Assembly: GCA_964009815.1 (NCBI GenBank)
Contig: CAXGJQ010000001.1
Span: 5,332-69,331 of the forward strand
Direction of reading: 5' to 3'
Length of the DNA: 64,000 bases
DNA from: an uncultured Candidatus Poseidoniales archaeon
Lineage (GTDB): Archaea > Thermoplasmatota > Poseidoniia > Poseidoniales > Poseidoniaceae
Below the pieces are notes generated by a model. That model did no database searches. It had not been told where the DNA came from and saw only the letters and a program-made list of their open reading frames with translations. The position numbers and the translations under genes were made by a program. This document shows, in pieces, positions 1-26,046 of this stretch; the first letter of the stretch is position 1, and every line of letters starts with the position of its first letter.

Positions 1-1452
1 CTTGTTGCTTTCCACGGCGGTCGTTGTGTTGTGGAGGACGGCCGCCTGAAGGGCGGTTGGGGCGGTCGCTTTTCTGCCCAGGTCGATTTGGGCGGTTGTT
101 CGAGTTACGGTCGTCGTTTCGCCGGTTGCCGCCACGTTGGCCGCCAGACCGATTGCCGCCACGTTGACCTCCCGAGCGGTTGCCGCCATCGCCTCGCTTC
201 TGGCCACCACGGTTGTAACGACGCATTCCGCTGCCGCGCCCGGTGCCGCGACGAGAACGTCCCCCGCCGGGTGAGCCCTTGACCCGTCCGGGTTTTTGAC
301 CGGGCTTGGGCCGTGCCTTCTCGAAATGGTACGGTTGGTCTTCCAACACTTCGATTTCTTCACCAAGGAGTTGCTGAATGCCAACCAAATACCCCGATTC
401 TGTTTCATCACAAAACGAGTAGGCCAATCCTTCTCGTCCTGCCCGTGCCGTTCGGCCGATGCGATGGATGTAGACTTCCGGTTCATTGGGAAGATCAAAA
501 TTGAACACGTGCGTGATGTCTTCGACATCGATGCCGCGACTGGCGATATCGGTGGCCACCAGCACAAACACATCGCCTTTTTTGAACGAGGCGAGGGCTT
601 TGGTTCGGGCGGTTTGACTCTTATCACCATGAATGGAATCGGAGGGAATGCCAACCTTGCTGAGCTGCTTCGCCAAACGATTTGCAGCGTGTTTTGTTCG
701 TGTGAAAACAATGCCGCACGAAACCATTTGTCCCTCGATAAGGTCAATGAGCAACTCGCGCTTGTCACTTTTTTGGACGAACGCAATGTACTGCTCGATC
801 CGGTCGGTGGTTGGCGCTTCTGGACTGATGTCAACTTCTACAGGACGGTGAAGCATTCGGCCGGCGAGTGTACCAATGGCTTTGGGCATGGTTGCACTGA
901 ACATCAGATTCTGACGCTTGTTTGGAACAAGGGCGAGGATACGCTCAACGTCCTTGCTAAAGCCCATGTCAAGCATGCGGTCAGCCTCATCCAAAACGAA
1001 GTGCTCCACCTGGCTCAAATCAACATGGCCTTGATTGTGAAGGTCCAGGAGGCGTCCTGGTGTTGCGACCAAAATATCCACGCCACGTCGAAGAGCTTTG
1101 ACCTGTGGCGATTGCCCGACTCCACCGAAAATGACGGTCGAGTACAACGGAAGATGGCGCCCGTAAACGCGCAGGCGTTCAGCAATTTGGGCAGCCAGTT
1201 CACGGGTGGGGGTGAGCATGAGCGCTCGAATGGGTCGTCCAGAATTGGGCTGCTCACTGGCGAGGTGGTGAAGAATGGGAAGGGCGAAGGCAGCCGTTTT
1301 TCCCGTACCGGTCTGCGCGATACCCATCACGTCGCGGCCCGACATCAGGGCTGGAATTGTTTCGGATTGAACCGGTGTAGGGGTCTGATACCCTTCGGAA
1401 GTCAGAGCTTCCAAAATTCGTTCATCAAGTTCTAAATCGCTGAAGGTTGACA
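1..1452 (-). CDS. ATP-dependent DEAD-box RNA helicase, 3' end runs off left edge; C-terminal RGG/GGQRGGNRS-rich tail
   Basis: Reverse-strand translation starting at ATG (rc) 1450-1452 gives MSTFSDLELDERILEALTSEGYQTPTPVQSE (Q-motif), AQTGTGKT (motif I), VLDEADRML (DEAD), SAT, HRIGRTARAG. It is followed by a Gly/Arg-rich repeat tail that continues past position 1. It is absent from the ORF track because it has no in-window stop. Confidence 0.85.
40..290. repeat. Imperfect short tandem nucleotide repeats encoding GG(Q/N)R(G/S)GN repeats of the helicase tail
   Basis: Repeated ggttgccgccacgttg / cgccagaccgattgccgcc units are visible in the sequence. On the minus strand they encode RGGNRSGGQRGGNRSGGQRGGNRRNDDRN. 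Confidence 0.6.
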
Positions 1453-5934: not shown

Positions 5935-7536
5935 ATGGCAAAACACCGAGCGGGCGACCGTCGAATTATCAGCATCAGCATTCCAGAAGACTTGGCCAAA
6001 AAACTGGACCGTAAAGTCGGAAAAGGCCGAGCAGGTGGCCGGTCAGCGACCATCGCCCGGTTGATTCAGCAAGGGCTTGAAGAACAAACTCCCACGGTTT
6101 CTGAACCGCCTGCAGAAAGCCGTCGGGCAGAAGCCACCGAAGGGGAAGTGCGAATTGAATCCGATACGATGGGTGAGCTCAACGTCCCGGCCGACCGCTA
6201 TTTTGGGTGTCAAACCGCTCGCTCACTTCTCAACTTTGATATCGGCCATGACACCATGCCTTTGGGCGTTGTTCGCGCCTTTGGTGTGCTAAAGCAAGCC
6301 GCTGCAAAGACCAACGTGGCCCTCAAACAACTCGACCCAGAAGTGGGCGACCTCATCATCGCTGCGTCGCAAGAAGTGATTGATGGACACTTGAACGAGC
6401 ACTTTCCACTTCGCGTTTGGCAAACCGGAAGCGGTACGCAATCGAACATGAACACCAACGAGGTGATCGCCAATCGAGCCATCGAAATTGCGGGTGGCGT
6501 CTTGGGTTCCAAATCACCCGTTCATCCCAACGACCACGTCAATCGGGCTCAATCGTCCAATGACACGTTTCCAACCGCCATGCACATCGCCGCTGCCGAG
6601 GCGTTCACGCATCGTCTGCTCCCCAGCGTACGTGCTCTTCGCGATGCTTTGCAAGCCAAATCAGTGGAATGGAGAGACATCGTAAAAATCGGGCGCACCC
6701 ACCTCATGGACGCTGTCCCTCTGACCCTCGGGCAGGAAGCATCGGGATGGGTGGCTCAATTGGACGCCGACCTCCGGCGGCTTGACTTTGCACTGGACGA
6801 CTTGTTTGAATTGGCCCTTGGCGGAACGGCGGTGGGGACTGGACTCAATGCCCATCCCCTCTTCGCTCAGATGGTGGCTGATGAAATTGCCAACATAACA
6901 GGCTTGACCTTTTGCTCTGCAGAGAACAAATTCGCTCAACTGGCTGCACACGATGCTATCGTTGCAGCGTCCGGGGCGCTGAACACCTTGGCGGCGTCAC
7001 TGATGAAAATCGCCAACGACATTCGGTGGTTGGGCTCCGGTCCCCGTTGCGGACTTGGCGAATTGGCTTTGCCGGCCAACGAGCCGGGGTCGTCCATCAT
7101 GCCTGGAAAGGTGAACCCGACCCAATCCGAAGCCATGACCATGGTGTGCTGCCAAGTCATGGGCAACCACACGGCCATCACCATTGGAGGAAGCCAAGGC
7201 AACTTCGAATTGAACGTCTTCAAGCCACTGATGATTCACAATTTCATGCACTCCGTGGACCTGCTCACAGATGCGTGCCGAACCTTCCGAACCCGCTGTG
7301 TGGAGGGGCTGGTCGCTGTTGAAGACAACATCCAGTCGCACTTGGAGAATTCGCTGATGCTGGTCACCGCCCTCAACAACCACATTGGGTACGATAAATC
7401 GGCCAAGATTGCGAAGAATGCCCACGAAAAGGGAACAACGCTTCGCGAATCTGCGCTTGAATTGGGCTACTTGACCAATGATGAGTTCGATGCTTGGGTT
7501 CGCCCTGAGCTTATGACGGGACCGAAACAAGGTTGA
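5935..7536 (+). CDS. fumC: Fumarate hydratase class II (FumC) with about 70-aa N-terminal ribbon-helix-helix-like extension (or fused upstream RHH ORF)
   Basis: [22 protein letters not shown] and [17 protein letters not shown] (class II fumarase/aspartase superfamily signature; fumarase-like version). Residues 1-70 read [19 protein letters not shown]...[12 protein letters not shown], which is RHH/CopG-like. An in-frame GTG at 6148 would give a canonical fumarase N-terminus [16 protein letters not shown]. Confidence 0.85.
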
Positions 7537-7537
7537 G

Positions 7538-8617
7538 TCAAGAACGGCGGAGCGCCCGAAGTTTTGCCTGGAGGGCAGAGGTTCGCTCATCGGTCTGTTC
7601 TGTCATTGAAGGCCCCTGGCTCTTCAGGCGACGGTGCAACATTTCACGATCCCAGACATGGATTTGACCATCTTCGCACCCGATAGCGGCCCGTTCCTGA
7701 GTGCCGTGCATGCTCCGCACTTTGGCAAACTCACCCGTCGCAACTTTTCCGCCTTTATCGGTGGCCCAAACGTTGAGCATACTGCCTTGACCGTCGTCAC
7801 GGGCCAACCACAGGAGTGAGGCTCCGTTTTGCTCCATGGCTTCGGTTTGGGCAGAGACTGGCGCCCCATGCGATGACCAACATTTGTCGCCTTTCTCTGT
7901 TCGACCAACGGCAAGGCCAGCATCGGTGGTTGCCACGTAGCCTTTGACCATGCACGTCAAGTGTTCAATGGCGCCTTCTTCGGTGGAGAGCACCGTTCCA
8001 AGATGTGAAACAACGCTCCCGTCGGTTTGCCCAAACAACCCTTGGGTTCGCCCGGTCGCTCCCGCGGTGGTGGGAGAAGAAGTGGGGGGTTTTGTGTGGG
8101 TGAAGGGCGGAGCGCCTGAGATGTCGAGGTGGCCGCATCGTGGACGCCCCAATCCGGCGAGCAAAGCATCGTCGGTGCAAACGAGAGTCCACGGGCGTTC
8201 ATCCATCCGTTCGACCCAAAGCAAGGTTCCATCCGAAGCGATTCTCCAAATCGCCGATTCAATGAAATCGTTGTGCTCGATATCGTACACCGAAGAGATG
8301 GCCACGACATCGCCTTGCCACCAAATGATGTCGTCAGCGCTTCCCTCGAGGGCCATTGACCACAGCTCTTCACCGGTGTTTCTGTCAAGGGAAACGACGT
8401 GCAAACCACTGGCTACGACGACTTGGGTTTCACTCAAGGCGATGGCGCTAACCCGGTCGTTGGTTTGAGCAGTCCACCGGTGTTCGCCGTCTTCGGCCCA
8501 GTGCGTCAAGCGACCATGCCATCCCCCTGCAAACACATCCTGTTCGGGCGTAAGGTGAACCATGGAAACCGGTTGGTCCAAATTTCGGACCATCCATGTC
8601 GCCCCCTTCAGGTCCAT
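7538..8617 (-). CDS. PQQ-like / WD40-like beta-propeller repeat protein
   Basis: Repeated W/G-rich blades (GDVVAISS..., DGTLLWV..., DGQIHVWD) typical of PQQ-enzyme-repeat beta-propellers. Confidence 0.45.
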   Translation of the reverse strand: MDLKGATWMVRNLDQPVSMVHLTPEQDVFAGGWHGRLTHWAEDGEHRWTAQTNDRVSAIALSETQVVVASGLHVVSLDRNTGEELWSMALEGSADDIIWWQGDVVAISSVYDIEHNDFIESAIWRIASDGTLLWVERMDERPWTLVCTDDALLAGLGRPRCGHLDISGAPPFTHTKPPTSSPTTAGATGRTQGLFGQTDGSVVSHLGTVLSTEEGAIEHLTCMVKGYVATTDAGLAVGRTEKGDKCWSSHGAPVSAQTEAMEQNGASLLWLARDDGQGSMLNVWATDKGGKVATGEFAKVRSMHGTQERAAIGCEDGQIHVWDREMLHRRLKSQGPSMTEQTDERTSALQAKLRALRRS

Positions 8618-8752
8618 GCAACGAGGAAGCCCTCCCCCGACATAAGGAGGTCGCTCGGTAGCGTCAACTTTCCTCGCATTCTGGACCGTTCACTTCCACC
8701 GAGCAAAAAAGAAAGGCTACCGTGAACAACACGGCTTAGGGATGGTGAGCGC

Positions 8753-9220
8753 ATGATAACACGGGAAGGTATTGAAAAGGCACAACAAGCATGGGGAGAA
8801 GGAATTGTAGCGATGGCTTCGGCACACCTCGAGGAGGGCGATTATGTTGGAATCGCTCGAAACCACGTCGAAACCCTGTACGCTTACGGAATGAGCACGG
8901 TTTTGTTCAAGCCAACCCTCGCTGCCGTGGAGCAATTTCGCCCCACCTTCGAGCAAGCACTCTCCTATTTTGTCGCCTCCAACAATGCCTGCCCTGAAGA
9001 CAAAGGATTCGCTATCAAGGGATGGACAAAGGTTCGATTTGAGAACACCGACATCATCCTCGATGGGTCAACCGCTTTGGCCATGGGGAACTATTTCTTC
9101 ACGCCCCCGAAGGGCGAGGAAGTCAAGGTGGAATACACGTTTGGCTACGTGCTGGATGATGCTGGCGCCTTGCGAATCAATCTCCATCACTCCTCCATGC
9201 CAGCCATTGCCGACCAATAG
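8753..9220 (+). CDS. Small conserved protein, NTF2-like/SnoaL-like (DUF4440-like) fold suspected
   Basis: 155 aa, no TM. The pattern AWGEG...F...G...W..V resembles ketosteroid-isomerase-like proteins. Weak call. Confidence 0.3.
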   Translation: MITREGIEKAQQAWGEGIVAMASAHLEEGDYVGIARNHVETLYAYGMSTVLFKPTLAAVEQFRPTFEQALSYFVASNNACPEDKGFAIKGWTKVRFENTDIILDGSTALAMGNYFFTPPKGEEVKVEYTFGYVLDDAGALRINLHHSSMPAIADQ

Positions 9221-9231
9221 GCCCTCTTCCT

Positions 9232-10113
9232 TCACAGCATTGGAATTCGGCGGCGCGGAATAGCAAACGTGAGCACAAAGGCAAGCAAGCCGAAAATGCA
9301 GGCCGACCAGTAATGCCCTACCGTGAAAAAGGCGACCACAGAGGATGTACGAAGCAGAACAATGGAACCCGATTTCAGTGCCCAAACAGAAAACCCAGCC
9401 GCGATGAGGGAGAGGCCCATGAACGCAAAGCCAACCAAAACATACACGGCTTGAGCGCTGGAATCCATCAAAGGATGGTCTTGTTGAGAAGGGGTTCGAT
9501 CCACTGTGCGAATCTCGCATGCTTCGGTGGTTCCTTCACAGGGCTCTTCTGCAAAGGTTTGCTCGGAGGGGAATTCGAAATCAATCGATGTAAATCCAAT
9601 GGGTTCAATCAATGCCGGGGGAGACAAGAGAACGCGGTTGGAATAGACGTCGCGATGGTCGTTGCGATGAACGATGATGTCCACGCGAATCAACCCAGGG
9701 TCCAATTGTTCAAAGGAGAAATATCCCGATTCGTCGGTCACGTTTTCCTCGGAAACCCACATGCTCGAGGCGTCGTCCAACCATGAAAGGTAGACCGTGG
9801 CGTTCACCATGGGTTGTCCAGCCTCATCCACCACCGTTCCGGTGAATGTCGCCGTATCGTCTGGAGCCGTCAACGCCAATCGGTAAACAAATTCATCCGG
9901 TCGCACCAAACCATCGTTGGGAGAAGCATAATCCAAACCGTTGAGAAAACCCAACATGCACGTGAAGAGGAGAAACACAGCGGTCGCTTTTCCGATGGGG
10001 TGGAGATTTGGGTCTTCGATGGTGAGAACAGCCTTGGAAGAGGCAAACAGCATGGGCGTCTCATCGGTCATTTCGTCGAGGTAGGTCGCATCGTCTTCTG
10101 CGCCCTCCGACAT
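9232..10113 (-). CDS. Membrane protein with carboxypeptidase-regulatory-like (CarbopepD_reg) beta-sandwich domain
   Basis: GTVVDEAGQPMVNATVYL...TDESGYFSF motif. Several hydrophobic helices (AVFLLFTCMLGFL, VLVGFAFMGLSLIAAGF, LLAFVLTFAI). Confidence 0.45.
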   Translation of the reverse strand: MSEGAEDDATYLDEMTDETPMLFASSKAVLTIEDPNLHPIGKATAVFLLFTCMLGFLNGLDYASPNDGLVRPDEFVYRLALTAPDDTATFTGTVVDEAGQPMVNATVYLSWLDDASSMWVSEENVTDESGYFSFEQLDPGLIRVDIIVHRNDHRDVYSNRVLLSPPALIEPIGFTSIDFEFPSEQTFAEEPCEGTTEACEIRTVDRTPSQQDHPLMDSSAQAVYVLVGFAFMGLSLIAAGFSVWALKSGSIVLLRTSSVVAFFTVGHYWSACIFGLLAFVLTFAIPRRRIPML

Positions 10114-17143: not shown

Positions 17144-17839
17144 TTGAGAAGGGCATGCTTCATAGGCTGTCAAGTGGGAAGATTGTCCATGGCAGACGAG
17201 CACAAAAACGAGCAGGAACGCCGTGTCTCCGTTGATGACATGCCTGCCGAAGTGCGCCAGCTCGCCGACGCCATGCTCGGAGTCAATCCACAATGGAACG
17301 TTCATGATTGGCTGGTCGAACAAGCCAACTTGTCGATGGATTTGTTGGCGCTTGATTTGCTCCGTGAAAAAGTGATGATCGACCAGCGGTTACAACGCTT
17401 GGATGACCTCGGACGCCGTCTTGAAAGCGATGAAAAGAGCGAACCTCTTGATGAGGACCCGAACCAGCGTAACCTCTTCGATTGTTTTGACCTGAACGAG
17501 GAACACGCCCTTCGAGGGCTCGGAGAGCGCGCCACAGAACCCGTCAATTCCACTCCATTAAACGGAGAAGAACATCACCCTTCCAACATCTTCCTCGACC
17601 TGTTGCCAAACGCCAACACCGATGACCCGCTGTTGGCCATCGCCTGCCAATCGGTCATCATCAGTATTGAGCTTGAAGTCGCAAAGGGTGAGCCTTTGGC
17701 CACCTTACAAGCCATTTTTGCCCACACCCGCGCCTCGAACATCGACGACAGTGAAACCGACGAAGCCTTGGACCATCTCCTCACCACAGGGATGGTCATC
17801 GAAGTTGACGACGATTGTTTCATTTTGCTCCCACCTTAA
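17144..17839 (+). CDS. Hypothetical acidic protein
   Basis: ORF with coding-like composition, no recognisable motif. Start possibly MADEHKNE at 17189. Confidence 0.35.
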   Translation: MRRACFIGCQVGRLSMADEHKNEQERRVSVDDMPAEVRQLADAMLGVNPQWNVHDWLVEQANLSMDLLALDLLREKVMIDQRLQRLDDLGRRLESDEKSEPLDEDPNQRNLFDCFDLNEEHALRGLGERATEPVNSTPLNGEEHHPSNIFLDLLPNANTDDPLLAIACQSVIISIELEVAKGEPLATLQAIFAHTRASNIDDSETDEALDHLLTTGMVIEVDDDCFILLPP

Positions 17840-17898: not shown

Positions 17899-18507
17899 AT
17901 GGGAATAGTAAGATCGGTCTTCTGGGGAGGCATGACGTGGTTTTCAGCAATGGCCATGATGGTGCATCCTGAAACGGCTTTGGGATTAGCAATCGTGGTG
18001 GCTTTCTTATCGGAATCTGCTCACCACAGCGCAGAATTAAATCGAATGGAACGAGGCGGGCGTCAACTCGCTTCTGAATTGCGACAAGCCAATGAACACG
18101 TTGAGAATCTACGACGTGCCCTGACGCATCGCCACATGGAATTGAACAACGCCATCGAAGAACTTCATCGGCGAGATGCGGTTGGAAGCCCGGCCGCCCG
18201 AGAATTGCTGAAGCGGCAAGAGGAAGCCATGACAGCAGCGTCCACTGCCCTTGAAACAAGGCAAGAGCAAAACGACGTGGTGTTCAACAGCATGGAGCGA
18301 CTCTTGAACATGCAAGTTGAACAAACCGCGAACATGCAGCGAGCGATGAGCGATCTTCTTCAACATCTCATTTCCCAACCACGAGGACACTTTACCATGA
18401 GTGACAGTGTTGTGGTTCAGGAGCAAAGAAATCAAGACACTGGCCTTTCTGAAACCTTCAATCTCATCAATGAGTGGTTGGATGCCGAAGCGGTATCTTC
18501 ACCATGA
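17899..18507 (+). CDS. Hypothetical protein, N-terminal TM helix plus coiled-coil
   Basis: Hydrophobic N-terminus (WFSAMAMMV...LAIVVAFL) followed by a heptad-like charged region. Confidence 0.35.
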   Translation: MGIVRSVFWGGMTWFSAMAMMVHPETALGLAIVVAFLSESAHHSAELNRMERGGRQLASELRQANEHVENLRRALTHRHMELNNAIEELHRRDAVGSPAARELLKRQEEAMTAASTALETRQEQNDVVFNSMERLLNMQVEQTANMQRAMSDLLQHLISQPRGHFTMSDSVVVQEQRNQDTGLSETFNLINEWLDAEAVSSP

Positions 18508-18526
18508 GGACAGCACTGCGTGAAGC

Positions 18527-18838
18527 ATGGGAAGCAAAAAGGAAGGTGCTCAGCGTGTGCTCGACGCCCATGCTTCTTCATTGAAGGTCAAGGGGCGATT
18601 GGTGCCCGTCGCCGTCGGCATTCTTGCCATTGGGCTCGTTGTCGCCTATCTCACTCGATGGGAATTCGGCCTTGCCACTGTTTTGATGTGTGGGTTGCTT
18701 TTCCAGTACGCCGTCGAACGGATGAACACCCTCCTCGAAGCAAGCATCGCTAATGGCCTCAAGGACATGGGGTGGGAGCAACCGGACGAATTGGATGAGA
18801 AAACGCTGAGCAAAATCAGAACCATCGCAGAAAAATAG
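18527..18838 (+). CDS. Small membrane protein
   Basis: Two predicted TM helices (LVPVAVGILAIGLVVAYL / LATVLMCGLLF). Confidence 0.3.
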   Translation: MGSKKEGAQRVLDAHASSLKVKGRLVPVAVGILAIGLVVAYLTRWEFGLATVLMCGLLFQYAVERMNTLLEASIANGLKDMGWEQPDELDEKTLSKIRTIAEK

Positions 18839-19564
18839 GTGGAGAACGTGTCTGGGAACAAAGAATTGGTTGAGCAATTCTTCGTGCAGGAGCGAAAAAA
18901 ACACCGACGCATGGTCGTGCTCCTCTGGATCACGGCTGGAATTGGCGACCTGTTTGCTATCGTTGCGTGGCTCGAAGGCGTTGAAATCAGTCGCATACTC
19001 CGAGGATTGGTCGTTCTCGGCGGTTTCGCTTTCGTGATGATGTGGTTGAGTTTACACCAGAAAAAGACATTGCAGGGCCGGTTGAGTGCATTGCTGGCCA
19101 GCATTGAATTTGGCTGGGAAGAATTCCACGGATTGGACCTGAACTCAACAGAAGCTGACCATCTGCACATCGCCTTCGCCGCCACCACCCTTGGGCGTAC
19201 CACGACCAATGAATCCTACCTTCGAACACGGGGGGGTGATGAGAAAGGACCAGCTTTTGACAAGACGGAAGCGGCCATCAAGCCCGGCAAACAACGCGTG
19301 GACCCTCAACTCCACGAGGAAGATTACCTGGGCCTCGAGGGAGACCTCCGAGTGGCCGAGCAACTGGTTGAAGAAGCCAATCAACAGTATGCTGACGAAG
19401 CGCAGCGGCTATGGGACATCGCCGAAGCACGGGACATGGACAACATCGAAGCAGGCGTAGAGCGACTTGGAGATTTGGTAGCGACAGGTTGGTTTGAGCG
19501 GAACGCCAAGGATGGAGCTGTTGAGGAACTGATGAATTCACATCTCAAAGATGAGCCCCTATAA
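18839..19564 (+). CDS. Hypothetical membrane protein
   Basis: Two N-terminal TM helices then a soluble acidic domain. Immediately follows the previous ORF (stop/start adjacent). Confidence 0.35.
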   Translation: MENVSGNKELVEQFFVQERKKHRRMVVLLWITAGIGDLFAIVAWLEGVEISRILRGLVVLGGFAFVMMWLSLHQKKTLQGRLSALLASIEFGWEEFHGLDLNSTEADHLHIAFAATTLGRTTTNESYLRTRGGDEKGPAFDKTEAAIKPGKQRVDPQLHEEDYLGLEGDLRVAEQLVEEANQQYADEAQRLWDIAEARDMDNIEAGVERLGDLVATGWFERNAKDGAVEELMNSHLKDEPL

Positions 19565-19599
19565 GCATCTTCTAAAGCCGTCGCTCAGCACTTCGGTTT

Positions 19600-20346
19600 A
19601 TGACGGTGAAAGCCATCCTCGTTGCGGGAGGGTACGGTTCACGCCTTCATCCATTTACCCATTACACACAAAAAACGCTCCTCCCGCTTTACGAACGCCC
19701 CGTCATCGACTACACCTTGGGGACCATCCGTCGGGCAGGCATCAAAGACATCACCATCATCTCCAACCAATTCGTTGGCCAAATCACAAAGCACATCGGC
19801 CAAGGGCTTCCCGGTGAACGAATCCATTACGTCATTGAAGAGGAGCCGTTGGGGGTCGCCCACGCCTTGAATTTAGCACGGCCCTACAACAAAGATTCGC
19901 GATTGATGGTCTATTTTTCCGACAACATCACGACCCTTGAATTCAAAGAACACGTGTCGGCGTTTGAACAGGCCAAAGAGCCCCCTGGGTGCCTCCTCAT
20001 CGCCCGCGAAGAGCCAAATCCACAGGCGTTTGGGGTCGCTGTTTTGGACGAAGAAGGTTCGATTTGTGATATCGTTGAAAAACCAAACAACCCACCTTCC
20101 AATCTAGCCATTGGGGGAATTTACATGTTTGATGAAAATTTTTGGCAGTACCTTGACCGCACTGTTGATCAACTCGGCGATGCTTTTTCCATTTCAGACA
20201 TCACGCGAATCTACGTCAAAGCAGGACTGGCTGAGGTGCTTTCAGTTGGAACGGAAACCTGGGTCGACTGTGGAACTCCCGAGGCCCTTCTGCAAGCATC
20301 GCAAATGGCGAAGGATGGAAAATTAGACCCAACCCCCCACCGTTGA
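19600..20346 (+). CDS. Sugar-phosphate nucleotidyltransferase (glucose-1-phosphate thymidylyl/uridylyltransferase-like)
   Basis: KAILVAGGYGSRLHPFT (G-x-G-t-R-L signature), EEPLGVAHAL, KP...GGIYMF. Confidence 0.8.
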   Translation: MTVKAILVAGGYGSRLHPFTHYTQKTLLPLYERPVIDYTLGTIRRAGIKDITIISNQFVGQITKHIGQGLPGERIHYVIEEEPLGVAHALNLARPYNKDSRLMVYFSDNITTLEFKEHVSAFEQAKEPPGCLLIAREEPNPQAFGVAVLDEEGSICDIVEKPNNPPSNLAIGGIYMFDENFWQYLDRTVDQLGDAFSISDITRIYVKAGLAEVLSVGTETWVDCGTPEALLQASQMAKDGKLDPTPHR

Positions 20347-20355
20347 ACTGGAGCA

Positions 20356-21186
20356 TTGAACATGAAAATCGGAATCATTGGAGCAGGCATGGTTGGAGGA
20401 GCCATTGAACATTGTTTTGCCCATGCCCACGAATTGTTTGTTCACGACCCTGCAAGAGGGACTGAACTGAACCAAGTTATTGACAACGTGGACATGGCCT
20501 ACATCGCTGTTCCAACTCCTCCCCATCCCGAAACAGGAGCCTGTGACACCCGCATCGTTGAAGAGGTGCTCGATGCTTTACCAGATGGATTCACGGCCGT
20601 CATCAAAAGCACCGTTGTGCCTGGAACAACGCAACAATACCACGAACGGTACAGCCATTTGAAGATCGCCTACTCGCCTGAATTTTTGGTGGAGCGGCAG
20701 CGCCTCGAAGATTTTGCCAACCAAGACATCTTGGTCGTAGGGACGCACCACAAGGAAGTGGCAGAAACCGTGTTCCAGCACCACAAGGAAGCCGGTGTTC
20801 TGCGCAAAGAGCAACTGTTCCAAGTAACCCCTACGCAGGCGGAACTGGTGAAGTACACCAAGAACACCTTCTATGCCCTCAAAGTCACCTTTGCCAACCA
20901 AATGTACGACATTTGCCAGGGAATGGGCGAAGATTGGTACGCCATTCGGGACATCATCACCGCTGACCAAGCGCAGCCCATCGGTCCATCGCACCTCGAC
21001 CCAATCTTCGGTCTACGCCGAGGGTTTGGAGGAAAATGCCTCCCCAAGGACAGTTCTGCCCTCGGTGTTCTCGCTGGTGAGCTGGGAGTCAAATATGCCA
21101 TCATGGACGCCATGCAGACCGACAATGAGGCGCTGCGAGCTATGCTAACTGGGAAACCCAGTGATGTGGTGACCAATGACGACTGA
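20356..21186 (+). CDS. UDP-glucose/GDP-mannose 6-dehydrogenase family protein, short form (276 aa, lacks C-terminal UDP-binding domain)
   Basis: [12 protein letters not shown] Rossmann, catalytic [10 protein letters not shown] (Cys nucleophile motif GFGGSCFPKD). The ORF stops about 150 aa short of typical family length. Confidence 0.65.
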
Positions 21187-21628
21187 CGCCTTGGCTTGGC
21201 TTGACCAGCGCGTGCCTCGAGGGTCGATTGTTCGATTCAGCATCGCTGGAGGATTCAACAGTTTTCTCTTCTATGTGTGTTGGGCAGGCCTCATGCTGAT
21301 GTTGGCCGATGCTGATGTTCGAATCCTTTGGGGAATTTGTTGGGGAGTCACCGGCGTCCTCGCCCATTTTGTCCATCGGTGGTTTACATTTGACGATAGA
21401 AAGCCGGTTGCATGGACCCTTTCCACCGCAGTTCCAGTGTATGTATCGAGTTTGGTCGGGTCAAGCATCACCATCGGTTGGCTTTCCGACACCTACACGG
21501 TCGATGTCCGCCTCCTGGGGCTTCTCAATCTGCTCGCTTGGGGCGTGATTGTTTGGCTGATGATGCGCTTGTTTGTGTTCCAGTATTCACCTACAGAGCA
21601 TGAGTCTCAAGAACATCAAACGGAATGA
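21176..21628 (+). CDS. GtrA-family membrane protein (polysaccharide/lipid-linked sugar translocation)
   Basis: [22 protein letters not shown]-terminal GtrA signature, 4 predicted TM helices, about 150 aa. Overlaps the upstream dehydrogenase by 11 nt (operonic). Confidence 0.55.
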
Positions 21629-21971
21629 CATCCAGAGCTCGTTGGTGGGTCGCTTCCAAGTCAACCGGGCAAGCCTTTCCAGCGTTCACCGCGAGAAGCC
21701 ATGTGCGGGCACAAACACACCATGAATCTCCAGCTTTCAATCCTGGAAAGTTAAATCGAGGCGCGGGCGTGATGAGGTCGTTGCCCATGTCTCGGGCGAA
21801 GTGAAGGAAATCGTCGTTGAGCACGCAGCAAACGGTATGAGAACCATGGTCTTGGTCGTCCGTGTTGCAACAACCGTCTCGAAACCATCCCGTTAGGGGG
21901 TCTCGTGAACAAGGTTCGAGTTCAGTGCCAATGACGTTCACGCTGGGGTCCATGCCCAAAGCAAAGGGCAT
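21591..21971 (-). CDS. DUF2237-family Cys-rich conserved protein
   Basis: LTGWFRDGCCNT, HTVCCVL, FPGLKAGDSWCVCA pattern matching DUF2237. Confidence 0.5.
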   Translation of the reverse strand: MPFALGMDPSVNVIGTELEPCSRDPLTGWFRDGCCNTDDQDHGSHTVCCVLNDDFLHFARDMGNDLITPAPRFNFPGLKAGDSWCVCARTWLLAVNAGKACPVDLEATHQRALDVIPFDVLETHAL

Positions 21972-22000
21972 CGCCCTATGAACGCTTGTTCAACCTTCTC

Positions 22001-22375
22001 TCACCGCCGGAATACGTTCTTGAAACGATTCAAAATACTTGGTTTTTCAGAAGGTTGTGCTCGCCCAAGCAGCACATCGAGTTCGCCAGAACGGTCAAGA
22101 TTCAACAAATCGTCAAATCCACCAACCGATTTTCCGGCCACGATGATCTGCGGGACGGTTCGTGCGCCACCCGTAGCTCGGGCAAAAGCCCGTTGCGCCT
22201 CGGGAGTGTTTTTCAAGCGGCGCTCCTTGTACGTGACCCGTTTAGAATCAAGGAGGCGTTTGGCTTGAACACAAGCACCGCAGCCTCGATTGGTCCAGAC
22301 AATGACCGGCGAGTCATCACCTTGAACCATGGTTGACGGAGGAGTGAAACGGGTTTCAAGATTGGGGTCTGCCAA
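22001..22375 (-). CDS. Glutaredoxin/NrdH-like redoxin (CGAC active site)
   Basis: VIVWTNRGCGACVQAK, TVPQIIV, GGFDDL thioredoxin-fold glutaredoxin signatures. The likely start is the internal MVQGDD (about 22330). Confidence 0.6.
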   Translation of the reverse strand: MADPNLETRFTPPSTMVQGDDSPVIVWTNRGCGACVQAKRLLDSKRVTYKERRLKNTPEAQRAFARATGGARTVPQIIVAGKSVGGFDDLLNLDRSGELDVLLGRAQPSEKPSILNRFKNVFRR

Positions 22376-22425
22376 GGGGTTTTGTCCGTTGGGTTCATTG
22401 GGAAGAAGCGCGCAAAGGTGCAGTA

Positions 22426-22857
22426 ATGCTACCCGACACGGTTCACAAACTCCCCCGAGAAGAACGGTTTGCCTACGCCCGATTGCTGGCCTTCATGGCT
22501 CGAATTGACAATGAGTTGACCGTTGACGAAATGGCCATGTTTGAGCAACGCCTTGGCACCGCTCTGCTCTCGCCGAGTCAACGGGAATCGATTCGTGATG
22601 CCCTGAAGAACCCTCCAAGCCTCGAAGAGTGCTTGGAAGATTTGTCTGGAGAAGCGGGTCGGCTCGCTCTACGAGACGCCGTAATGATGGCGGCCGCTGA
22701 CGGTACCGTCGACGAGGATGAGCGGGATGCACTGGAGGACATTTCAGAACACCTGGGGCTGCGTGAGGATGCTGTTGAGCAACTCCTCAATTGGACGGTC
22801 AAGGGCTACAGATGGATGAAGGATGGTTACGAACTCCTTGATTCGCTTGAGGAATGA
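22426..22857 (+). CDS. TerB-like (tellurite-resistance TerB family) helical protein, paralog 1
   Basis: Two ADG-x-x-DE-x-E half-repeats (FMARIDNELTVDEMAMF; MAAADGTVDEDERDALEDISEHLGL) typical of the TerB fold. Confidence 0.5.
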   Translation: MLPDTVHKLPREERFAYARLLAFMARIDNELTVDEMAMFEQRLGTALLSPSQRESIRDALKNPPSLEECLEDLSGEAGRLALRDAVMMAAADGTVDEDERDALEDISEHLGLREDAVEQLLNWTVKGYRWMKDGYELLDSLEE

Positions 22858-22863
22858 GGCCGT

Positions 22864-23286
22864 ATGTTCCCCGATGGTTTGATCCATCGTTCGCCACAAG
22901 AACGCGTCCGCTATGCCGAAATATTGGTGTTCATCGCAGCAGCGGATGGAGAATTGGTGCGCGAAGAAATAGCCATGATTGAAGCCATGATGGGGCGAGC
23001 CATGATTCACCCCGAATCGAGAATCACTGTTCGAGGAGGATTTGAACAACCCATTCCACTTGAACAATCTCTGGCCGACCTTGATCCAGTCTTTGCTCAA
23101 CTCGTCCTCAGGGACGCTGCGTTGGTCGCGGCTGTTGACGGGGATTACGACCGGAAAGAATTGACCGCTCTTCGTAAAATTGCGAAAGCGGCGGACGTGA
23201 CTCCGAAACAACTCTCACTGTTGCTTGATTGGGTGACAAAAGGATGGCATTGGTTTGAAGAAGCCAGTGTTTTTTTGGCGAAGTAA
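22864..23286 (+). CDS. TerB-like helical protein, paralog 2 (tandem duplicate of the previous gene)
   Basis: Same architecture and similar motifs (IAAADGELVREEIAMIE; VAAVDGDYDRKELTALRKIAK). It ends like paralog 1 with W-V-T-KG-W-(hydrophobic). Only 6 nt separate the two genes. Confidence 0.5.
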   Translation: MFPDGLIHRSPQERVRYAEILVFIAAADGELVREEIAMIEAMMGRAMIHPESRITVRGGFEQPIPLEQSLADLDPVFAQLVLRDAALVAAVDGDYDRKELTALRKIAKAADVTPKQLSLLLDWVTKGWHWFEEASVFLAK

Positions 23287-23347
23287 CGGGCGTTTTCCAT
23301 CCTCTCATTGAGAGACATCTTCAAAGAGAGAAAGCCGTCCCGTCGGT

Positions 23348-25354
23348 TTGGTGGGGACATTGCAAAACGGGGTTAGCGGATGGTATGCACGATTGGACCG
23401 ATGCCTTGACAACCGCGAACAACAAATTGAGATTTGGCTCACCACGTGGGAAAAATCGCTCAAGACCTTTCAGCCCATCGCCGCTCTTCTCCCCGAAGAC
23501 TGGCCAACTCTCCCGGCCAACCTTTTGACGGACCCAGGTCATGTGCTTGACCACCTTCTCGCTCGTCATGACGCCGAGTCCGATGGACGCTCTCCTCGAG
23601 GCGCCCACCCTACGCCACCACGTTTGGCGGACGCGGTTATTTGTTCTGAAATGAAAGACAACATGGTGAATCCTAAGAAACCCGTTCAGCAGTCCAATTT
23701 CCTGATCAGCAACCTCCCTCCCGGCTTCCGCCAGCACGTTGAACAACTCAATTTGCCAAAGGCAACCCAGGACAATGAAGTGGATGACGAAGCTGAGCAA
23801 CAAGCTGTTGAGGCCAACAAACGCACGCTGAGCGGCATACCTTTGCCGGTGGCCGACACAGCAACGGGAGGAGGTTTGTTCCATGCACGCTTGATTCGAC
23901 GACACGCCGATGCTCACGAAGATGCGGACCTTGAACTGCGCAAAGAAGACAGTCGCCGTCTGTTCTCAAACATCCAACTTTTGGATGTCAACCCCTTGGT
24001 GGTCAAGAGCACAAAAACAAGGCTTTTGCTCGAATCCATTCGTCATGAGCTCGTCAGTTTTGGGCCCGAAACACCAGGAAAAATTTCTCGAAAGGAAATG
24101 GAAGCCTTGCTTGACAGTGGTGTTCGTCAAGGAGACGCTTTGCAAGGTGATTGGCCATGGGACCAACCCCCTGAACTGGTACTGACCAACCCGCCATGGT
24201 TGCGCATTAAAGACCGGTTCAGAGGCATGGAAGACGGCAGCCAACTCCGCAAAGAATTGGGTGAACAACTTCGAAGCCTTGCCGACAACGGCACGCCTCG
24301 TTTTTCCACCATGCGTGGAAACGTCAACCTCTACCGCTTATTCATCGAGCGCAGCCTCCAGATTTTGAATGAAGGAGGCCGATTACGCATCATCGCACCC
24401 GACAGTCTTCTTCGGGAACAATCGTCACATCCGCTTCGAGAATTGCTTGTCAAGCACCACGGCTGGACCCATGCTTGGGCCATTGAGGAGGCCAACCTTC
24501 TCTTCCCAGGAATGACACAAGGCGTGGTTGTACTCGGAATTACCGCCAACGGCGAAGCCCCCGTACTCAACCTCCAAGGGCCGATTACTCGGGCTGACCT
24601 GCGCCGTGAAGGTGAGGGTTTATCCTCCCGCGTTCCTGTGTTTGAACTCAAAGAAGAACAGTGGACGGGTTGGGCACGAGACACATGGGCAGTACCTCGT
24701 CTTCCCCGGGATCGCGTTGAACGCACCTACACCCTTGAGGTGCTTGACCGCCTAGCGAAACTCCCACGCCTGAGTGATGAAGAACACCCGCTGACCACCA
24801 ACAAACGCCAGGTTCGTGTGCGGGTTGGAGAAATTGACCAGACTTCCCATGCCAAGAGCATCGAAACATGGGTCAAAGGCAAGCGAAGCCGTCCTTTCAT
24901 CCGGGGAGTTCACTTCTCAGAAAGTGAAGATGGGAAAGTTTTCATTCGCCATCCTGCCTTCCGGACCGACATTCCATCCCGTGCGAGTGAACGCCAGCTT
25001 GCCATGTGGGTGGGCGACAACCATCCATCCTACGGGCCCCGACTGGCCTGTCAAGCCATCGTTAATGCTCATCAAGAACGCCGTCTGCGCTGGGCCGTTA
25101 TCCCCCAAGGGAGTGTTCTTGGGAACAGCGTGAACCACATCGAATTGCATGACGACATCCAATCCCGCTTGATGGAAGAGCACTCGGACATCGAAACCGG
25201 CTTGGAATGGCTCTGCAACCACCTGAACAACAACGACCTTGACGAATGGGCTCGAGCCTGGGCTGCCAACAACAACGTCAACAATTACGAATTGGAAATG
25301 TTGCCAGTTGAACTACCCGACTCCTTTCCACAATTCAGCAGTCTCGTCCGCTGA
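23348..25354 (+). CDS. Divergent N6-adenine (gamma-class, Eco57I/TaqI-like) methyltransferase-like protein with C-terminal TRD-like region; motif I degenerate
   Basis: LVLTNPPWL (motif IV NPPW) followed by NLYRLFIERSLQILNEGGRLRIIAPDSLL (motifs V-VIII of gamma MTases). No canonical DPxxGxG motif I upstream (closest is LLDVNPLVVKS). The first about 100 codons overlap an antisense ORF. The start may be the internal MKDNM (about 23651). Confidence 0.5.
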   Translation: MVGTLQNGVSGWYARLDRCLDNREQQIEIWLTTWEKSLKTFQPIAALLPEDWPTLPANLLTDPGHVLDHLLARHDAESDGRSPRGAHPTPPRLADAVICSEMKDNMVNPKKPVQQSNFLISNLPPGFRQHVEQLNLPKATQDNEVDDEAEQQAVEANKRTLSGIPLPVADTATGGGLFHARLIRRHADAHEDADLELRKEDSRRLFSNIQLLDVNPLVVKSTKTRLLLESIRHELVSFGPETPGKISRKEMEALLDSGVRQGDALQGDWPWDQPPELVLTNPPWLRIKDRFRGMEDGSQLRKELGEQLRSLADNGTPRFSTMRGNVNLYRLFIERSLQILNEGGRLRIIAPDSLLREQSSHPLRELLVKHHGWTHAWAIEEANLLFPGMTQGVVVLGITANGEAPVLNLQGPITRADLRREGEGLSSRVPVFELKEEQWTGWARDTWAVPRLPRDRVERTYTLEVLDRLAKLPRLSDEEHPLTTNKRQVRVRVGEIDQTSHAKSIETWVKGKRSRPFIRGVHFSESEDGKVFIRHPAFRTDIPSRASERQLAMWVGDNHPSYGPRLACQAIVNAHQERRLRWAVIPQGSVLGNSVNHIELHDDIQSRLMEEHSDIETGLEWLCNHLNNNDLDEWARAWAANNNVNNYELEMLPVELPDSFPQFSSLVR

Positions 25355-25446
25355 ACGGAGAAAAGCGCGCGTTTGATTTCCGAATTCCCGCGTTTTGAAC
25401 ACGATAATTTATAGCGACTGCCTCGTTAGCACCACCTGCGTACTCT

Positions 25447-26046
25447 TTGGGAGATGAATTGACAATGGGCGTTCATCCAAAGATTGGCATCACTGGCTTG
25501 CCACGCAGTGGGAAATCAGCCGTTATGGAAAAGGTCCTCGACATGCTCCTCGACGAGCGAAAGCGAGAGATCTCTATGCGAGGGGGGTCCACAGAGAACC
25601 CCATTTTGGGTGGCCTGCGAACCGAACCGTTGCTTGAAAACGGTGAGCGAATGGGTTACAAGGTCATCGACATTGTTTCTGGAGAAGAAGGTACCATCGC
25701 TCACAAGAAGATCGACTCTCGTCTGCGGGTGCTTGGATACGGTATCGATGTCGAAGAGCTCAACCGAGTGGCTCTGCCAGCCATTGATTACGCTCAGCAC
25801 CATTGCGAAGTGTTGGTCATTGACGAGATTGGGAAATTCTCAGTTGAATCGGAAGCGTTCGTTCAAGCGGTGCGTAGCGCTTTGGAAGTGGACATGCCAA
25901 CCTTGCTGACCTTGCACAAGAAAAGCCGCCATCCGCTGCTTCAAGACATCCGTCGCCGGGACGATGGTCGAATTCTCGAAGTGACCCCCGTCAACCGTGC
26001 CTTGTTGCCCTACAAGATTCACAAGCTCATGCGGGAAACGTATTGA
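25447..26046 (+). CDS. Nucleoside-triphosphatase THEP1 family (MJ1559-like P-loop NTPase)
   Basis: KIGITGLPRSGKSAV Walker A, LVIDEIGKFS Walker B-like, overall about 190 aa THEP1 layout. Upstream gataatttatag TATA-like element at about 25395. Confidence 0.75.
   Translation: MGDELTMGVHPKIGITGLPRSGKSAVMEKVLDMLLDERKREISMRGGSTENPILGGLRTEPLLENGERMGYKVIDIVSGEEGTIAHKKIDSRLRVLGYGIDVEELNRVALPAIDYAQHHCEVLVIDEIGKFSVESEAFVQAVRSALEVDMPTLLTLHKKSRHPLLQDIRRRDDGRILEVTPVNRALLPYKIHKLMRETY

Follow-up and report, generated by a model that had tools for sequence, protein, structure and literature searches.

Introduction

CamA, the orphan N6-adenine methyltransferase (MTase) of Clostridioides difficile, is a solitary enzyme conserved species-wide, in which a gamma-class domain is followed by a C-terminal DNA-recognition domain. 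M.TaqI (421 aa; PDB 2IBS etc.) belongs to a type II restriction-modification (R-M) pair and carries NPPY as its motif IV, as do the adenine MTases of the Alw26I/Eco31I/Esp3I family (TIGR02987) of type IIS R-M systems. The PglX/BrxX proteins of BREX share the Eco57I-type gamma-class architecture at a size of ~1200 aa. An archaeal precedent for solitary enzymes is provided by the Halobacteria, whose orphan MTase genes are highly conserved among lineages, in contrast to the patchy distribution of true R-M systems (Fullmer et al. 2019, PMC6471742); these orphans belong to other protein families, with the known or putative motifs CTAG and GATC.

Here we consider an MTase gene of Poseidoniales and its neighbours in a 64-kb window, by which we mean the whole stretch of DNA analysed. 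CamA is the best full-length structural match of its product (PDB 7LNI/7LT5; Foldseek E 1.2e-15, TM ~0.47-0.57), at an identity of only 12-13%, and the two are alike in domain order, in being solitary and in taxon-wide conservation. The Poseidoniales protein differs in an extra invariant N-terminal segment of ~60 residues and in a variable insertion of ~70 residues between motifs X and I, and it is conserved at the level of the order, with losses in some lineages, whereas CamA is conserved at that of the species. The closest sequence family is TIGR02987, which all of the nearest full-length outgroup proteins match; the homology spans motifs I-VI and the recognition blocks ACQxIxN, VLxNSxN and NNHVxNxE..LP. 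However, the window's MTase matches the model only partially (86.6 bits versus a curated cut-off of 353.5), has NPPW in place of NPPY, possesses a family-specific N-terminus that does not align to the outgroups, and has neither an adjacent restriction gene nor a fused m5C domain, unlike the TIGR02987 outgroup protein P0194 with its fused Dcm domain. Among proteins of solved structure, sequence search with the family profile retrieved M.TaqI alone (E 5e-5, over motifs V-VI); its fold match spans the catalytic domain and the target-recognition domain (TM to target 0.62-0.65), at 14-15% identity.

Results

Genes of the locus

An earlier note on this DNA had placed four open reading frames on one strand, and all four were confirmed (Table 1), as were three of its four domain calls; what proved wrong was its central premise, a degenerate SAM motif I. 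The gaps between TerB1, TerB2, MTase and NTPase are 6, 61 and 92 nt, each 1 nt shorter than previously given. Judging from its N-terminus, MQNGVSGWY, which matches the homologues, the MTase probably starts at TTG 23360 (664 aa), and the NTPase probably at ATG 25465, downstream of the TTG of its longest form. Sequence composition is uniform in the window, and the flanks (QRPTase, PPS_PS, Iso_dh, sugar-nucleotide genes, glutaredoxin, GcvH, RNase H and TFIIB) are of housekeeping type; the surroundings of the MTase gene are vertically inherited core genome. In one relative, L006, an RsmB-like gene is found close to the locus.

Table 1. Features of the locus (positions in the window)
Feature	Position	Strand	Details
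GGTTCWT element, conserved	~30 nt upstream of TerB1
TerB1	22426..22857	+	143 aa; ORF confirmed; PF05099 E 1.7e-7, 31.9 bits vs 24.4 cut-off
TerB2	22864..23286	+	140 aa; ORF confirmed; PF05099 E 2.2e-9, 38.0 bits vs 24.4 cut-off
CAYTCAAAG-like element, candidate promoter element	23316..23326	+	24-34 nt upstream of probable MTase start
MTase, longest form	23348..25354	+	668 aa; TTG start; ORF confirmed
Motif X region	23588..23632	+	residues 81-95, RSPRGAHPTPPRLAD; invariant in A1
Motif I, SAM-binding glycine loop	23849..23881	+	residues 168-178, VADTATGGGLF
Motif II, acidic D213	23975..23992	+	residues 210-215, QLLDVN; D213 invariant
Motif IV, catalytic NPPW	24188..24199	+	residues 281-284; invariant in A1
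C-terminal target-recognition domain	24545..25312	+	residues ~400-655
TTTATA, candidate archaeal TATA box	25408..25413	+	upstream of NTPase gene
THEP1-type P-loop NTPase, longest form	25447..26046	+	199 aa; TTG start; ORF confirmed; PF03266 E 3.2e-39

The description of two adjacent paralogous TerB genes, 6 nt apart, was borne out: both products pass the Pfam gathering score of PF05099, against which the TerB calls were judged, and they are 37% identical (E 2e-30). TerB1 is a stand-alone TerB-domain protein with two DGxxxxxE-type repeats (IDNELTVDE and ADGTVDEDE) and a C-terminal W..KGYxWM motif, 60-94% identical among Poseidoniales. TerB2 diverges faster (37-50% identity in distant lineages versus 63-73% for TerB1). 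The two genes are separated by 2-6 nt in nearly all loci (n=84) and form a tightly coupled, probably bicistronic pair encoding two stand-alone TerB-domain proteins. The fourth gene had rightly been called a THEP1 NTPase; its product scores 142.5 bits with PRK13695, below the cut-off of 156, and is an ordinary archaeal THEP1 orthologue.

MTase motifs

The note had taken the stretch LLDVNP for a motif I devoid of its glycine-rich loop. Profile alignment to canonical MTases fixes the register of the motifs: QLLDVNP lines up with motif II (lyGvDlD) of canonical outgroup enzymes, and the Pfam Eco57I match begins at residue 208, that is, at motif II. An intact canonical motif I, PVADTATGGGLF (residues 167-178; P-V-A-D170-T-A-T-G174-G175-G176-L-F), lies ~40 residues upstream and matches LtVLDPACGPGGFL and lePcvGtGvFi of the outgroups, with D170, G174, G175 and G176 unchanged in all 14 homologues compared (53-92% identity); an intact but mis-aligned motif I, which the note itself had named as a possible flaw, is thus what was found. 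The strings that it had quoted for the MTase core (LVLTNPPW, NLYRLFIERSLQILNEGGRLRIIAPDSLL and LLDVNPLVVKSTKTR) are all present. The motif X stretch shows the pattern of the N-terminal helix by which gamma-class MTases contact SAM. NPPW, which is experimentally required in archaeal M.PtoI (PMC10050889), lines up with the NPPY of the outgroups. The full gamma-class set (motifs X, I, II, III, NPPW as IV, V and VI) is invariant across the window's clade, and such invariance of the catalytic Asn and the SAM motifs is the signature of selection for catalysis. The target-recognition domain, with the invariant blocks ACQAIVNA, LGNSVN and AANNNVNNYELE, is homologous to that of TIGR02987-family MTases and structurally TaqI/CamA-like.

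In a large MGIIb sister clade, RPPW, KPPW or HPPW replaces NPPW at the same locus; among 217 family members the first residue of motif IV is N in 95, R/K/H in 120 and D in 2. The sister-clade MTase keeps motif I (FADPCVGAGLF), the Asp of motifs II and III, PPWLRIK, GNVNLYRL and the recognition-domain blocks. M.PtoI (PMC10050889) and TspGWI lose their activity, or retain little of it, when the motif IV Asn is mutated. Since R/K orthologues are conserved across the whole sister clade, the function retained by the family need not be canonical N6 methylation, and the note's idea of a repurposed MTase may apply to this clade, in which R/K stands for the catalytic Asn while SAM motifs and recognition domain are kept. 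These 120 orthologues, and the fact that a marine SMRT survey assigned no clade-wide methylated motif to the family, would fit a pseudoenzyme, that is, a SAM- and/or DNA-binding regulator or sensor that does not methylate. For the window, however, this is improbable, since its own clade keeps the catalytic Asn and all SAM motifs invariant (N in 95, D in 2) and the degenerate motif I was a mis-alignment.

Catalytically degenerate paralogues are familiar from the eukaryotic MT-A70 branch, where METTL14, with EPPL for DPPW, is the partner of an active subunit. The likeness is limited to the R/K-PPW sister clade, in which the acceptor residue of motif IV is replaced within a conserved MTase fold; unlike METTL14, which lies in another branch of the superfamily, the R/K forms are single orthologues, with no active copy beside them in the loci examined.

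Family, fold and substrate

The MTase fold proposed earlier for the 668-aa protein stands. The Eco57I domain (PF07669) scores 39.9 bits versus a cut-off of 25.3, the PADLOC model MTase_II matches with E 1.5e-26, and the AlphaFold model (pLDDT 80.9, pTM 0.79) retrieves DNA adenine MTases, foremost CamA, BrxX/PglX, M.BseCI and M.TaqI (Foldseek E 1e-15 to 1e-11). Relatives are encoded on 272 species-level genome contigs, essentially all labelled Poseidoniales, and the family is sharply bounded, with at least 740 bits inside, while the next full-length proteins score ~110 bits; a search for viral relatives found none. The family does not extend beyond Poseidoniales (marine Group II archaea), in which it is vertically inherited.

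Order-wide vertical inheritance with a nearly invariant recognition domain would also be compatible with a housekeeping N-methyltransferase acting on RNA or another substrate, the TaqI-like domain being accessory. The surroundings, reminiscent of rRNA/tRNA modification (RNase H, GcvH and THEP1; the RsmB-like gene of L006) and unlike typical R-M genes, and the want of a DNA motif assigned to the family in the marine SMRT survey point the same way. Nevertheless, we hold this to be decidedly improbable: the best 50 Foldseek matches listed are all DNA MTases, with the recognition domain covered, the nearest sequences belong to the Alw26I/Eco31I/Esp3I family of type IIS DNA MTases (one with a fused Dcm domain), and at least three losses of the gene would be unusual among core RNA-modification enzymes. 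DNA is the substrate that we infer.

Three types of loci

The conserved synteny predicted for the four genes holds in 116 loci of the window's type, TerB-TerB-MTase(NPPW)-NTPase (type A). Type B, MTase-NTPase without TerB, is found in one MGIIb clade (6 lineages), and type C, TerB-TerB-NTPase without MTase, comprises 23 loci in at least three independent lineages; the THEP1 NTPase holds the same position in all three types. At least three losses show the MTase to be dispensable, and TerB is independent of it, because the pair is kept intact in at least three MTase-less lineages; the pair probably represents an older unit, which stays where the MTase is lost. The four genes are thus best read as conserved neighbours and not as an obligate module. 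For the NTPase, the earlier suggestion of simply unrelated neighbours comes nearest to what the data show, whereas the link of the TerB pair is putative.

It is conceivable, though rather unlikely, that the tandem TerB proteins regulate or partner an active MTase, the NTPase being incidental; as putative metal- or ligand-binding domains, they could for example make methylation responsive to signals of stress or metal. TerB1-TerB2 lies directly upstream, on the same strand, of every NPPW gene with enough upstream sequence (116 loci in Poseidoniaceae and Thalassarchaeaceae, MTase identity 54-97%), NPPW is found in 40/40 metagenome TerB loci with a complete readable motif IV, and there is never an insertion between pair and MTase, while distant lineages have breaks at both outer edges of the block. 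Moreover, TerB is missing at the locus only in the clade with the motif IV change from N to R/K. However, this association amounts to a single evolutionary event, and the loss is not specific to TerB: what the locus lacks is a segment of ~5.4 kb that includes the pair. Also at odds with such a partnership are the intact TerB pairs of the MTase-less lineages, the MTase's own conserved upstream element, which is present also where TerB is absent, and the failure to find either fusion or co-occurrence outside this locus order.

Discussion

We consider it reasonably likely that the product of the 668-aa ORF is a complete and probably active orphan gamma-class N6-adenine DNA MTase with conserved, non-obligate neighbours. 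Its Rossmann-fold domain would bind SAM via motifs X, I, II and III, and the C-terminal TaqI/CamA-like domain would read one fixed DNA sequence, probably the same target in all members, given the near-invariance of this domain within the clade. The target adenine, flipped out into the NPPW pocket, would receive the methyl group at N6. A nuclease domain was found among the locus neighbours in no lineage, as judged from the locus neighbourhoods and, for the genome of the window, from its 64 kb. The lack of a nuclease partner, vertical inheritance and the housekeeping neighbourhood make a role other than classical restriction most likely, and the mark would be chromosomal (epigenetic/regulatory) or self-marking.

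The defence or DNA-modification-sensing module envisaged earlier fares poorly in a vertically inherited core genome with no nuclease, PADLOC system or viral relatives. Defence contexts are known for TerB domains and MTases, TerB1 weakly matches the PADLOC candidate PDC-S48 (E 4e-5), the NTPase weakly matches PD-T4-6 and mad8, and one orthologue, P0035, is labelled 'BREX-1 PglX' by NCBI. A new anti-virus system of TerB, MTase and NTPase is nonetheless very unlikely and largely refuted by distribution. There is no effector nuclease, and PADLOC returned only generic MTase matches and no system. The locus occupies a fixed chromosomal position with housekeeping flanks, composition is uniform, and the recognition domain is nearly invariant, not diversifying. 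Types B and C show the components apart from one another, contrary to a single four-gene unit, and the NTPase is an ordinary THEP1 in every configuration. The marine survey detected neither BREX- nor DISARM-associated MTases in its MAGs (PMC8919816). Despite structural matches to PglX/BrxX (9EWZ, 8C45), no BREX NCBIfam model, PglX included, matches the window's MTase at E<=0.1, and other BREX genes were found in no locus examined; the label on P0035 is best seen as an over-annotation.

In the SMRT survey of marine metagenomes, GATC was the only m6A motif common to nearly all archaeal MAGs (PMC8919816). One surveyed MAG, L011 (CM1_5m.P78), carries a 92%-identical orthologue of the MTase. GATC depletion is equal in lineages with and without the MTase gene. 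The known GATC enzymes are, to our knowledge, not gamma-class, and these observations together mean that a clade-wide motif attributable to the MTase was not seen.

TerB1, MTase and NTPase are each preceded by a separate conserved element (Table 1), and those of the MTase and the NTPase are candidate promoter elements. The CAYTCAAAG-like element is conserved in type A and in TerB-less type B loci of distant lineages. Most lineages keep a TTTATA/TTTATT/TTAATA box ~37-48 nt before the NTPase gene; this gene is a housekeeping neighbour and may have a TATA-like promoter of its own.

The four genes and their catalytic motifs

The four same-strand open reading frames (ORFs) described in the earlier note are all present (see table), separated by gaps of 6, 61 and 92 nt, and profile searches bear out its assignments for each of them: TerB for both small ORFs, a methyltransferase fold for the large one and a THEP1-type NTPase for the last. 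TerB1 and TerB2 are paralogues (37% identity, E 2e-30), and all matches to TerB1 in a homology search had at least 68% identity, with source-given taxon labels that were all Poseidoniales or Euryarchaeota. The true start of the methyltransferase is probably the TTG at 23360, because its homologues begin at the corresponding MQNGVSGWY, and that of the NTPase is probably the ATG at 25465. Walker A and B motifs are apparent in the NTPase sequence (GLPRSGKS and VLVIDEIG), which scores 142.5 bits against the NCBIfam equivalog PRK13695, slightly below the cut-off of 156.

Coordinates of genes, putative regulatory elements and methyltransferase motifs (nucleotides of the window, or residues of the methyltransferase where stated). 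A1 is an alignment of 14 methyltransferase homologues; locus type A is TerB-TerB-methyltransferase(NPPW)-NTPase and type B is methyltransferase-NTPase without TerB.
Feature	Position	Strand	Details
TerB1	22426-22857	+	143 aa; PF05099, 31.9 bits (cut-off 24.4)
TerB2	22864-23286	+	140 aa; PF05099, 38.0 bits (cut-off 24.4)
Methyltransferase	23348-25354	+	668 aa, TTG start; PF07669 (Eco57I-type), 39.9 bits (gathering score 25.3), residues 208-371
NTPase_1/THEP1	25447-26046	+	199 aa, TTG start; PF03266, 134.9 bits (cut-off 23.9), E 3e-39
GGTTCWT element			before TerB1
CAYTCAAAG-like element	23316-23326		24-34 nt upstream of methyltransferase start; types A and B
TTCCGRAA-like motif	25377-25384		just downstream of methyltransferase stop, upstream of the TATA-like box of the NTPase
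TTTATA/TTTATT/TTAATA box	25408-25413		about 37-48 nt upstream of NTPase; most lineages
Motif X	residues 81-95		RSPRGAHPTP..LAD; invariant in A1
Motif I (SAM loop)	residues 168-178		ADTATGGGLF (169-178); D170, G174, G175 and G176 invariant in A1
Motif II	residues 210-215		QLLD213; invariant in A1
Motif III	residues 262-266		D263; invariant in A1
Motif IV	residues 281-284		NPPW (N281-P-P-W284); invariant within clade
Motif V	residues 324-335		GNVNLYRLFxER; invariant in A1
Motif VI	residues 344-353		G344..R347..P351-D-S; invariant in A1
C-terminal target-recognition domain	residues ~400-655		after motif VI

On balance, we read the large protein as probably an intact, solitary gamma-class N6-adenine DNA methyltransferase that is specific to Poseidoniales and dispensable in some of their lineages, with an independent TerB pair and a housekeeping THEP1 NTPase as its flanks. 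The alignment A1 (53-92% identity) contains the complete gamma-class motif series with every motif invariant, in the linear order X-I-II-III-IV-V-VI followed by the target-recognition domain; motif I conforms to D/E-x3-G-x-G-x-F/L, and NPPW conforms to the motif IV consensus (D/N/S)PP(Y/F/W). Sequence searches of the PDB, either with the single sequence or with the family profile, reached only motifs V-VI of M.TaqI, a match too short to fix motif I, and the register was therefore set by hhalign against outgroup methyltransferases. In the profile alignment with the nearest canonical enzymes, PLPvADtAtGGGLF is paired with sLtVLDPACGPGGFL, QLLDVnp with the motif II stretch lyGvDlDaaa, and LTNPPWLRIK with vmNPPYerlK. 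Since this alignment fixes the register, the segment LLDVNPLVVKSTKTR, in which a degenerate motif I had been seen, is motif II. That part of the earlier observation has to be given up, on grounds the earlier note had itself named (an intact motif I), while its genes and domains stand. The by-eye reading was probably misled by a variable insertion of about 70 residues between motifs X and I. NPPW has been validated experimentally as an active motif in the archaeal M.PtoI, where mutation of its N and W severely reduces activity (PMC10050889); in TspGWI, replacing N by A all but eliminates modification (PMC3968444). The idea that the window's protein is a pseudoenzyme or sensor could draw on a sister clade in which the protein stays conserved despite a changed motif IV, and for that clade we rate it higher; in the window, however, motif I and NPPW are both intact and invariant, and here we consider it improbable.

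The AlphaFold model of the protein is good (pLDDT 80.9, pTM 0.79) and combines a Rossmann-type methyltransferase domain with a TaqI-like recognition domain. In a Foldseek search of the PDB, the best 50 matches listed were all DNA adenine methyltransferases, covering both the catalytic and the recognition domain; they include CamA (E 1.2e-15), BrxX/PglX, M.BseCI, M.TaqI and BpuSI, with E values from 1e-15 to 3e-11. The uniformity of these matches speaks against a substrate other than DNA, to which we attach a very small probability.

Family boundaries

The closest described family by sequence is Alw26I/Eco31I/Esp3I (TIGR02987), of which the protein is a distant offshoot and not a member, because it scores 86.6 bits against a curated cut-off of 353.5, and then with partial coverage only. 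Its neighbours also differ: instead of an adjacent type IIS restriction endonuclease there are TerB, TerB and THEP1, and no nuclease domain was found beside the methyltransferase in any related locus or lineage, within about 8-10 kb. The family is sharply bounded: in a profile search run exhaustively against 1.84 billion representatives, full-length members score at least 740 bits and the next full-length proteins about 110 bits; the latter align from motif I onward only and are themselves TIGR02987-like. The first ~60 residues (VSGWYARLDR..WPTLPA.LLT) are invariant and family-specific.

The protein likewise differs from PglX of the BREX system: no BREX model matches it at E<=0.1, and the other BREX genes (brxA/B/C, pglZ, brxL) are absent from the neighbourhoods examined. 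The NCBI name of the orthologue P0035 (83% identity), "BREX-1 system adenine-specific DNA-methyltransferase PglX", is thus likely to be an over-annotation.

Three locus types and their bearing on a possible TerB-linked module

The source names of the homologues (Ca. Poseidonia, Poseidoniaceae, Thalassarchaeaceae) place the window in Poseidoniales, the marine Group II archaea (MGII). In a scan with one genome per species, relatives of the methyltransferase are encoded on 272 contigs, at a locus that is fixed and syntenic. Poseidoniaceae genomes are collinear over about 12 kb around the block, which makes synteny there of little use; the informative comparisons are those with distant lineages. 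Type A, with all four genes, was counted at 116 loci and extends over MGIIa and some of MGIIb, with methyltransferase identity as low as 54%, while the genes outside the block differ.

Type B occurs in six lineages within one MGIIb clade, in the order QRPTase-PPS_PS-Iso_dh(-)-~200-aa ORF-methyltransferase-NTPase-small ORF-GcvH-RNaseH, with no TerB within 8 kb. The ~200-aa ORF was considered as a diverged TerB and rejected, as it has no TerB match and its orthologue in the window is the ORF at 17144-17839; the whole segment of ~5.4 kb equivalent to window 17899-23286 is therefore missing at the type B site. This ORF of ~200-230 aa beside Iso_dh (window 17144-17839, +; L006:2770-3417 and L088:7333-7938 in two related loci) is conserved but belongs to no Pfam family. 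It shows 31-33% identity between MGIIa and MGIIb and weak winged-helix-like matches (RPA_C, HTH_9) at its C-terminus, and is the immediate upstream neighbour of the methyltransferase-like gene in type B loci.

Type C has the NTPase directly after an intact TerB1-TerB2 pair, the methyltransferase being cleanly absent, and was found at 23 loci in a metagenome scan with the TerB1 alignment (L127, L138, L141, L152, L168 and 18 more; TerB1 at ~6001-6430, NTPase from ~6930-7140). These loci fall into at least three separate lineages on the NTPase tree, and the methyltransferase has therefore been lost from this locus at least three times independently. The NTPase is constant across all three types. 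TerB1 adjoined either the methyltransferase or the NTPase at all 80 sampled TerB1 loci, a hint, though no proof, that a close TerB1 is wholly absent from type B genomes.

Since TerB persists without the methyltransferase and the methyltransferase without TerB, the four genes do not form an obligate module. The first of these observations counts against a TerB-methyltransferase regulatory pair, for which it can be said that the NPPW form has, in every case found, a tandem TerB pair immediately upstream; we regard such a pair as possible, though unlikely. Across loci, TerB1 and TerB2 are 2-6 nt apart in nearly all cases, TerB2 and the methyltransferase 50-83 nt, and the methyltransferase and the NTPase about 90-110 nt. 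Together with the separate conserved elements before TerB1, the methyltransferase and the NTPase, which were read by eye and with regular expressions, these gaps suggest three putative transcription units (TerB1-TerB2, methyltransferase, NTPase) rather than one operon. The TTCCGRAA-like motif is kept in types A and B, at the equivalent position in L001, L011, L023, L031, L088, L092, L093 and L095, and may serve as a terminator element or bind a regulator.

The flanks of the block are housekeeping genes, with QRPTase, PPS_PS, Iso_dh, three small ORFs, an NTP-transferase, UDP-glucose dehydrogenase, a GtrA-like membrane protein, DUF2237 and glutaredoxin upstream, and a small membrane ORF, GcvH, RNase H and TFIIB downstream; base composition is even throughout the window. 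A scan of viral contigs found no relatives of the methyltransferase, which rules out a virus-borne enzyme. In a PADLOC-DB 2.0 scan of the four proteins there was no system-specific gene-set match: the methyltransferase had generic MTase_II/IIG/I matches only, weak single-domain matches were obtained to PDC-S48, PD-T4-6 and mad8, and TerB2 had none. On these results a known anti-phage defence system was rejected. With no adjoining nuclease and no viral relatives either, and with housekeeping genes on both sides, the defence module that the earlier note had envisaged loses its footing, and we consider a defence function highly improbable. The profile is that of a probably solitary, vertically inherited methyltransferase, not of a mobile restriction-modification system or a defence island; among archaea, orphan methyltransferases conserved across a clade have a precedent in Halobacteria (PMC6471742). 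What is defined here is an order-specific, vertically inherited family of putative, probably solitary adenine methyltransferases, and both the tempting misreading of a dead methyltransferase in a new defence module and the probably mistaken "BREX PglX" database label are corrected.

Possible methylation target

Metagenomic methylomes are the sole source of knowledge on how marine Group II archaea, an abundant and uncultured group, use DNA methylation. The marine-metagenome SMRT survey of Hiraoka et al. reports m6A at GATC for almost every archaeal MAG, a weak modification of AGCT for Poseidoniia and other motifs sporadically, and states that BREX- and DISARM-associated methyltransferases were not found (PMC8919816). 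Two MAGs, CM1_5m.P82 and Ct9H_90m.P24, are GATC-negative. One surveyed MAG, CM1_5m.P78, corresponds to our locus L011, whose orthologue is 92% identical to the window's methyltransferase.

No motif could be tied to the methyltransferase gene when palindromes and k-mers were compared for their representation across the three locus types. GATC and AGCT are strongly under-represented in type A (observed/expected 0.43 and 0.30) and are depleted to a like degree in type C, which has no methyltransferase (0.47 and 0.37), so neither depletion tracks the gene; in type B the depletion is weaker (0.64 and 0.67). The window itself has ratios of 0.32 for GATC, 0.42 for AGCT and 0.42 for CTAG. The depleted motifs coincide with those that the survey reports as modified in Poseidoniia MAGs (PMC8919816). 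That the motifs reported there include no clade-wide one attributable to the enzyme is the main evidence counted against simple constitutive activity. Existing PacBio and nanopore metagenomes could be compared across three natural genotypes (NPPW with TerB, R/K-PPW without TerB, and no methyltransferase), such that a motif could be assigned to the enzyme or excluded.

An altered motif IV in the sister clade

It is the R/K-PPW sister clade that merits following up. Of the 217 full-length family members, 95 begin motif IV with N and 2 with D, 111 with R, 8 with K and 1 with H. A neighbour-joining tree shows two cleanly separated clades, N/D and R/K/H, and within the latter the K forms nest among the R forms; N is ancestral, because the outgroups carry NPPY. 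The R/K forms, which are the orthologues found in type B loci (L088-L095, methyltransferase at ~8001-10000 in each), make up a large, deeply diversified, Thalassarchaeaceae-like MGIIb clade. They retain a canonical motif I (FADPCVGAGLF), and PPWLRIK, GNVNLYRL, the acidic residues in motifs II and III and the blocks of the recognition domain are kept as well; selection on these proteins is evident. Decay of motif X is confined to one KPPW subclade (P0121, P0270-P0273), which reads RGIGSIQIKLVD. By the established mechanism, the first residue of motif IV is the hydrogen-bond acceptor for the adenine amino group, a role in which Arg or Lys is unable to serve (PMC10050889), and the R/K-PPW proteins are thus probably not conventional N6-adenine methyltransferases.

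Given that the SAM motifs, PPWLRIK, motif V and the recognition domain stay conserved despite R, K or H, members of this clade might act as SAM-binding, sequence-specific DNA readers, that is, as prokaryotic pseudo-methyltransferases, or might perform an unrecognised chemistry at the flipped base. The switch from N to R/K coincides with the absence of the TerB pair from the locus, an association that is suggestive only, as it reflects a single evolutionary event. It is conceivable, although we have doubts, that the family has a conserved role other than plain N6-adenine methylation and that the TerB proteins, without which the NPPW form was never found, are partners or controllers of the active enzyme. 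If this were true, the cluster would represent a new kind of epigenetic module, linked to TerB, in an archaeal group that ranks among the most abundant in the ocean, and the R/K substitution in a conserved catalytic motif would offer a concrete, testable case of a possible enzyme-to-reader conversion in prokaryotes.

Further observations

At the long-read-polished locus L084 (JAYQOB010000001.1, 6001-8001), tblastn covers the methyltransferase at 6372-7856 only, with an apparent 201 nt before the NTPase versus the usual ~92, which may reflect assembly-error frameshifts or a decaying gene. L028 (PBRN01000001.1) and L043 (NZEQ01000050.1) carry the typical Poseidoniales gene block in MAGs labelled Pseudobdellovibrionaceae and Verrucomicrobiales, respectively; the odd labels are probably due to binning contamination of the public records. 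Elsewhere in the window, the gene at 57557-58639 (-), which had been taken for a canonical methyltransferase, has a weak match of 47 residues to the beta-class N6_N4_Mtase model PF01555 (E 1.9e-4, 21.9 bits, below the cut-off of 26.7), and a 1014-aa protein at 54407-57451 (-) combines an LDL-receptor class A repeat with a PRKCSH-like region (E ~1e-6), which is unusual in an archaeon.
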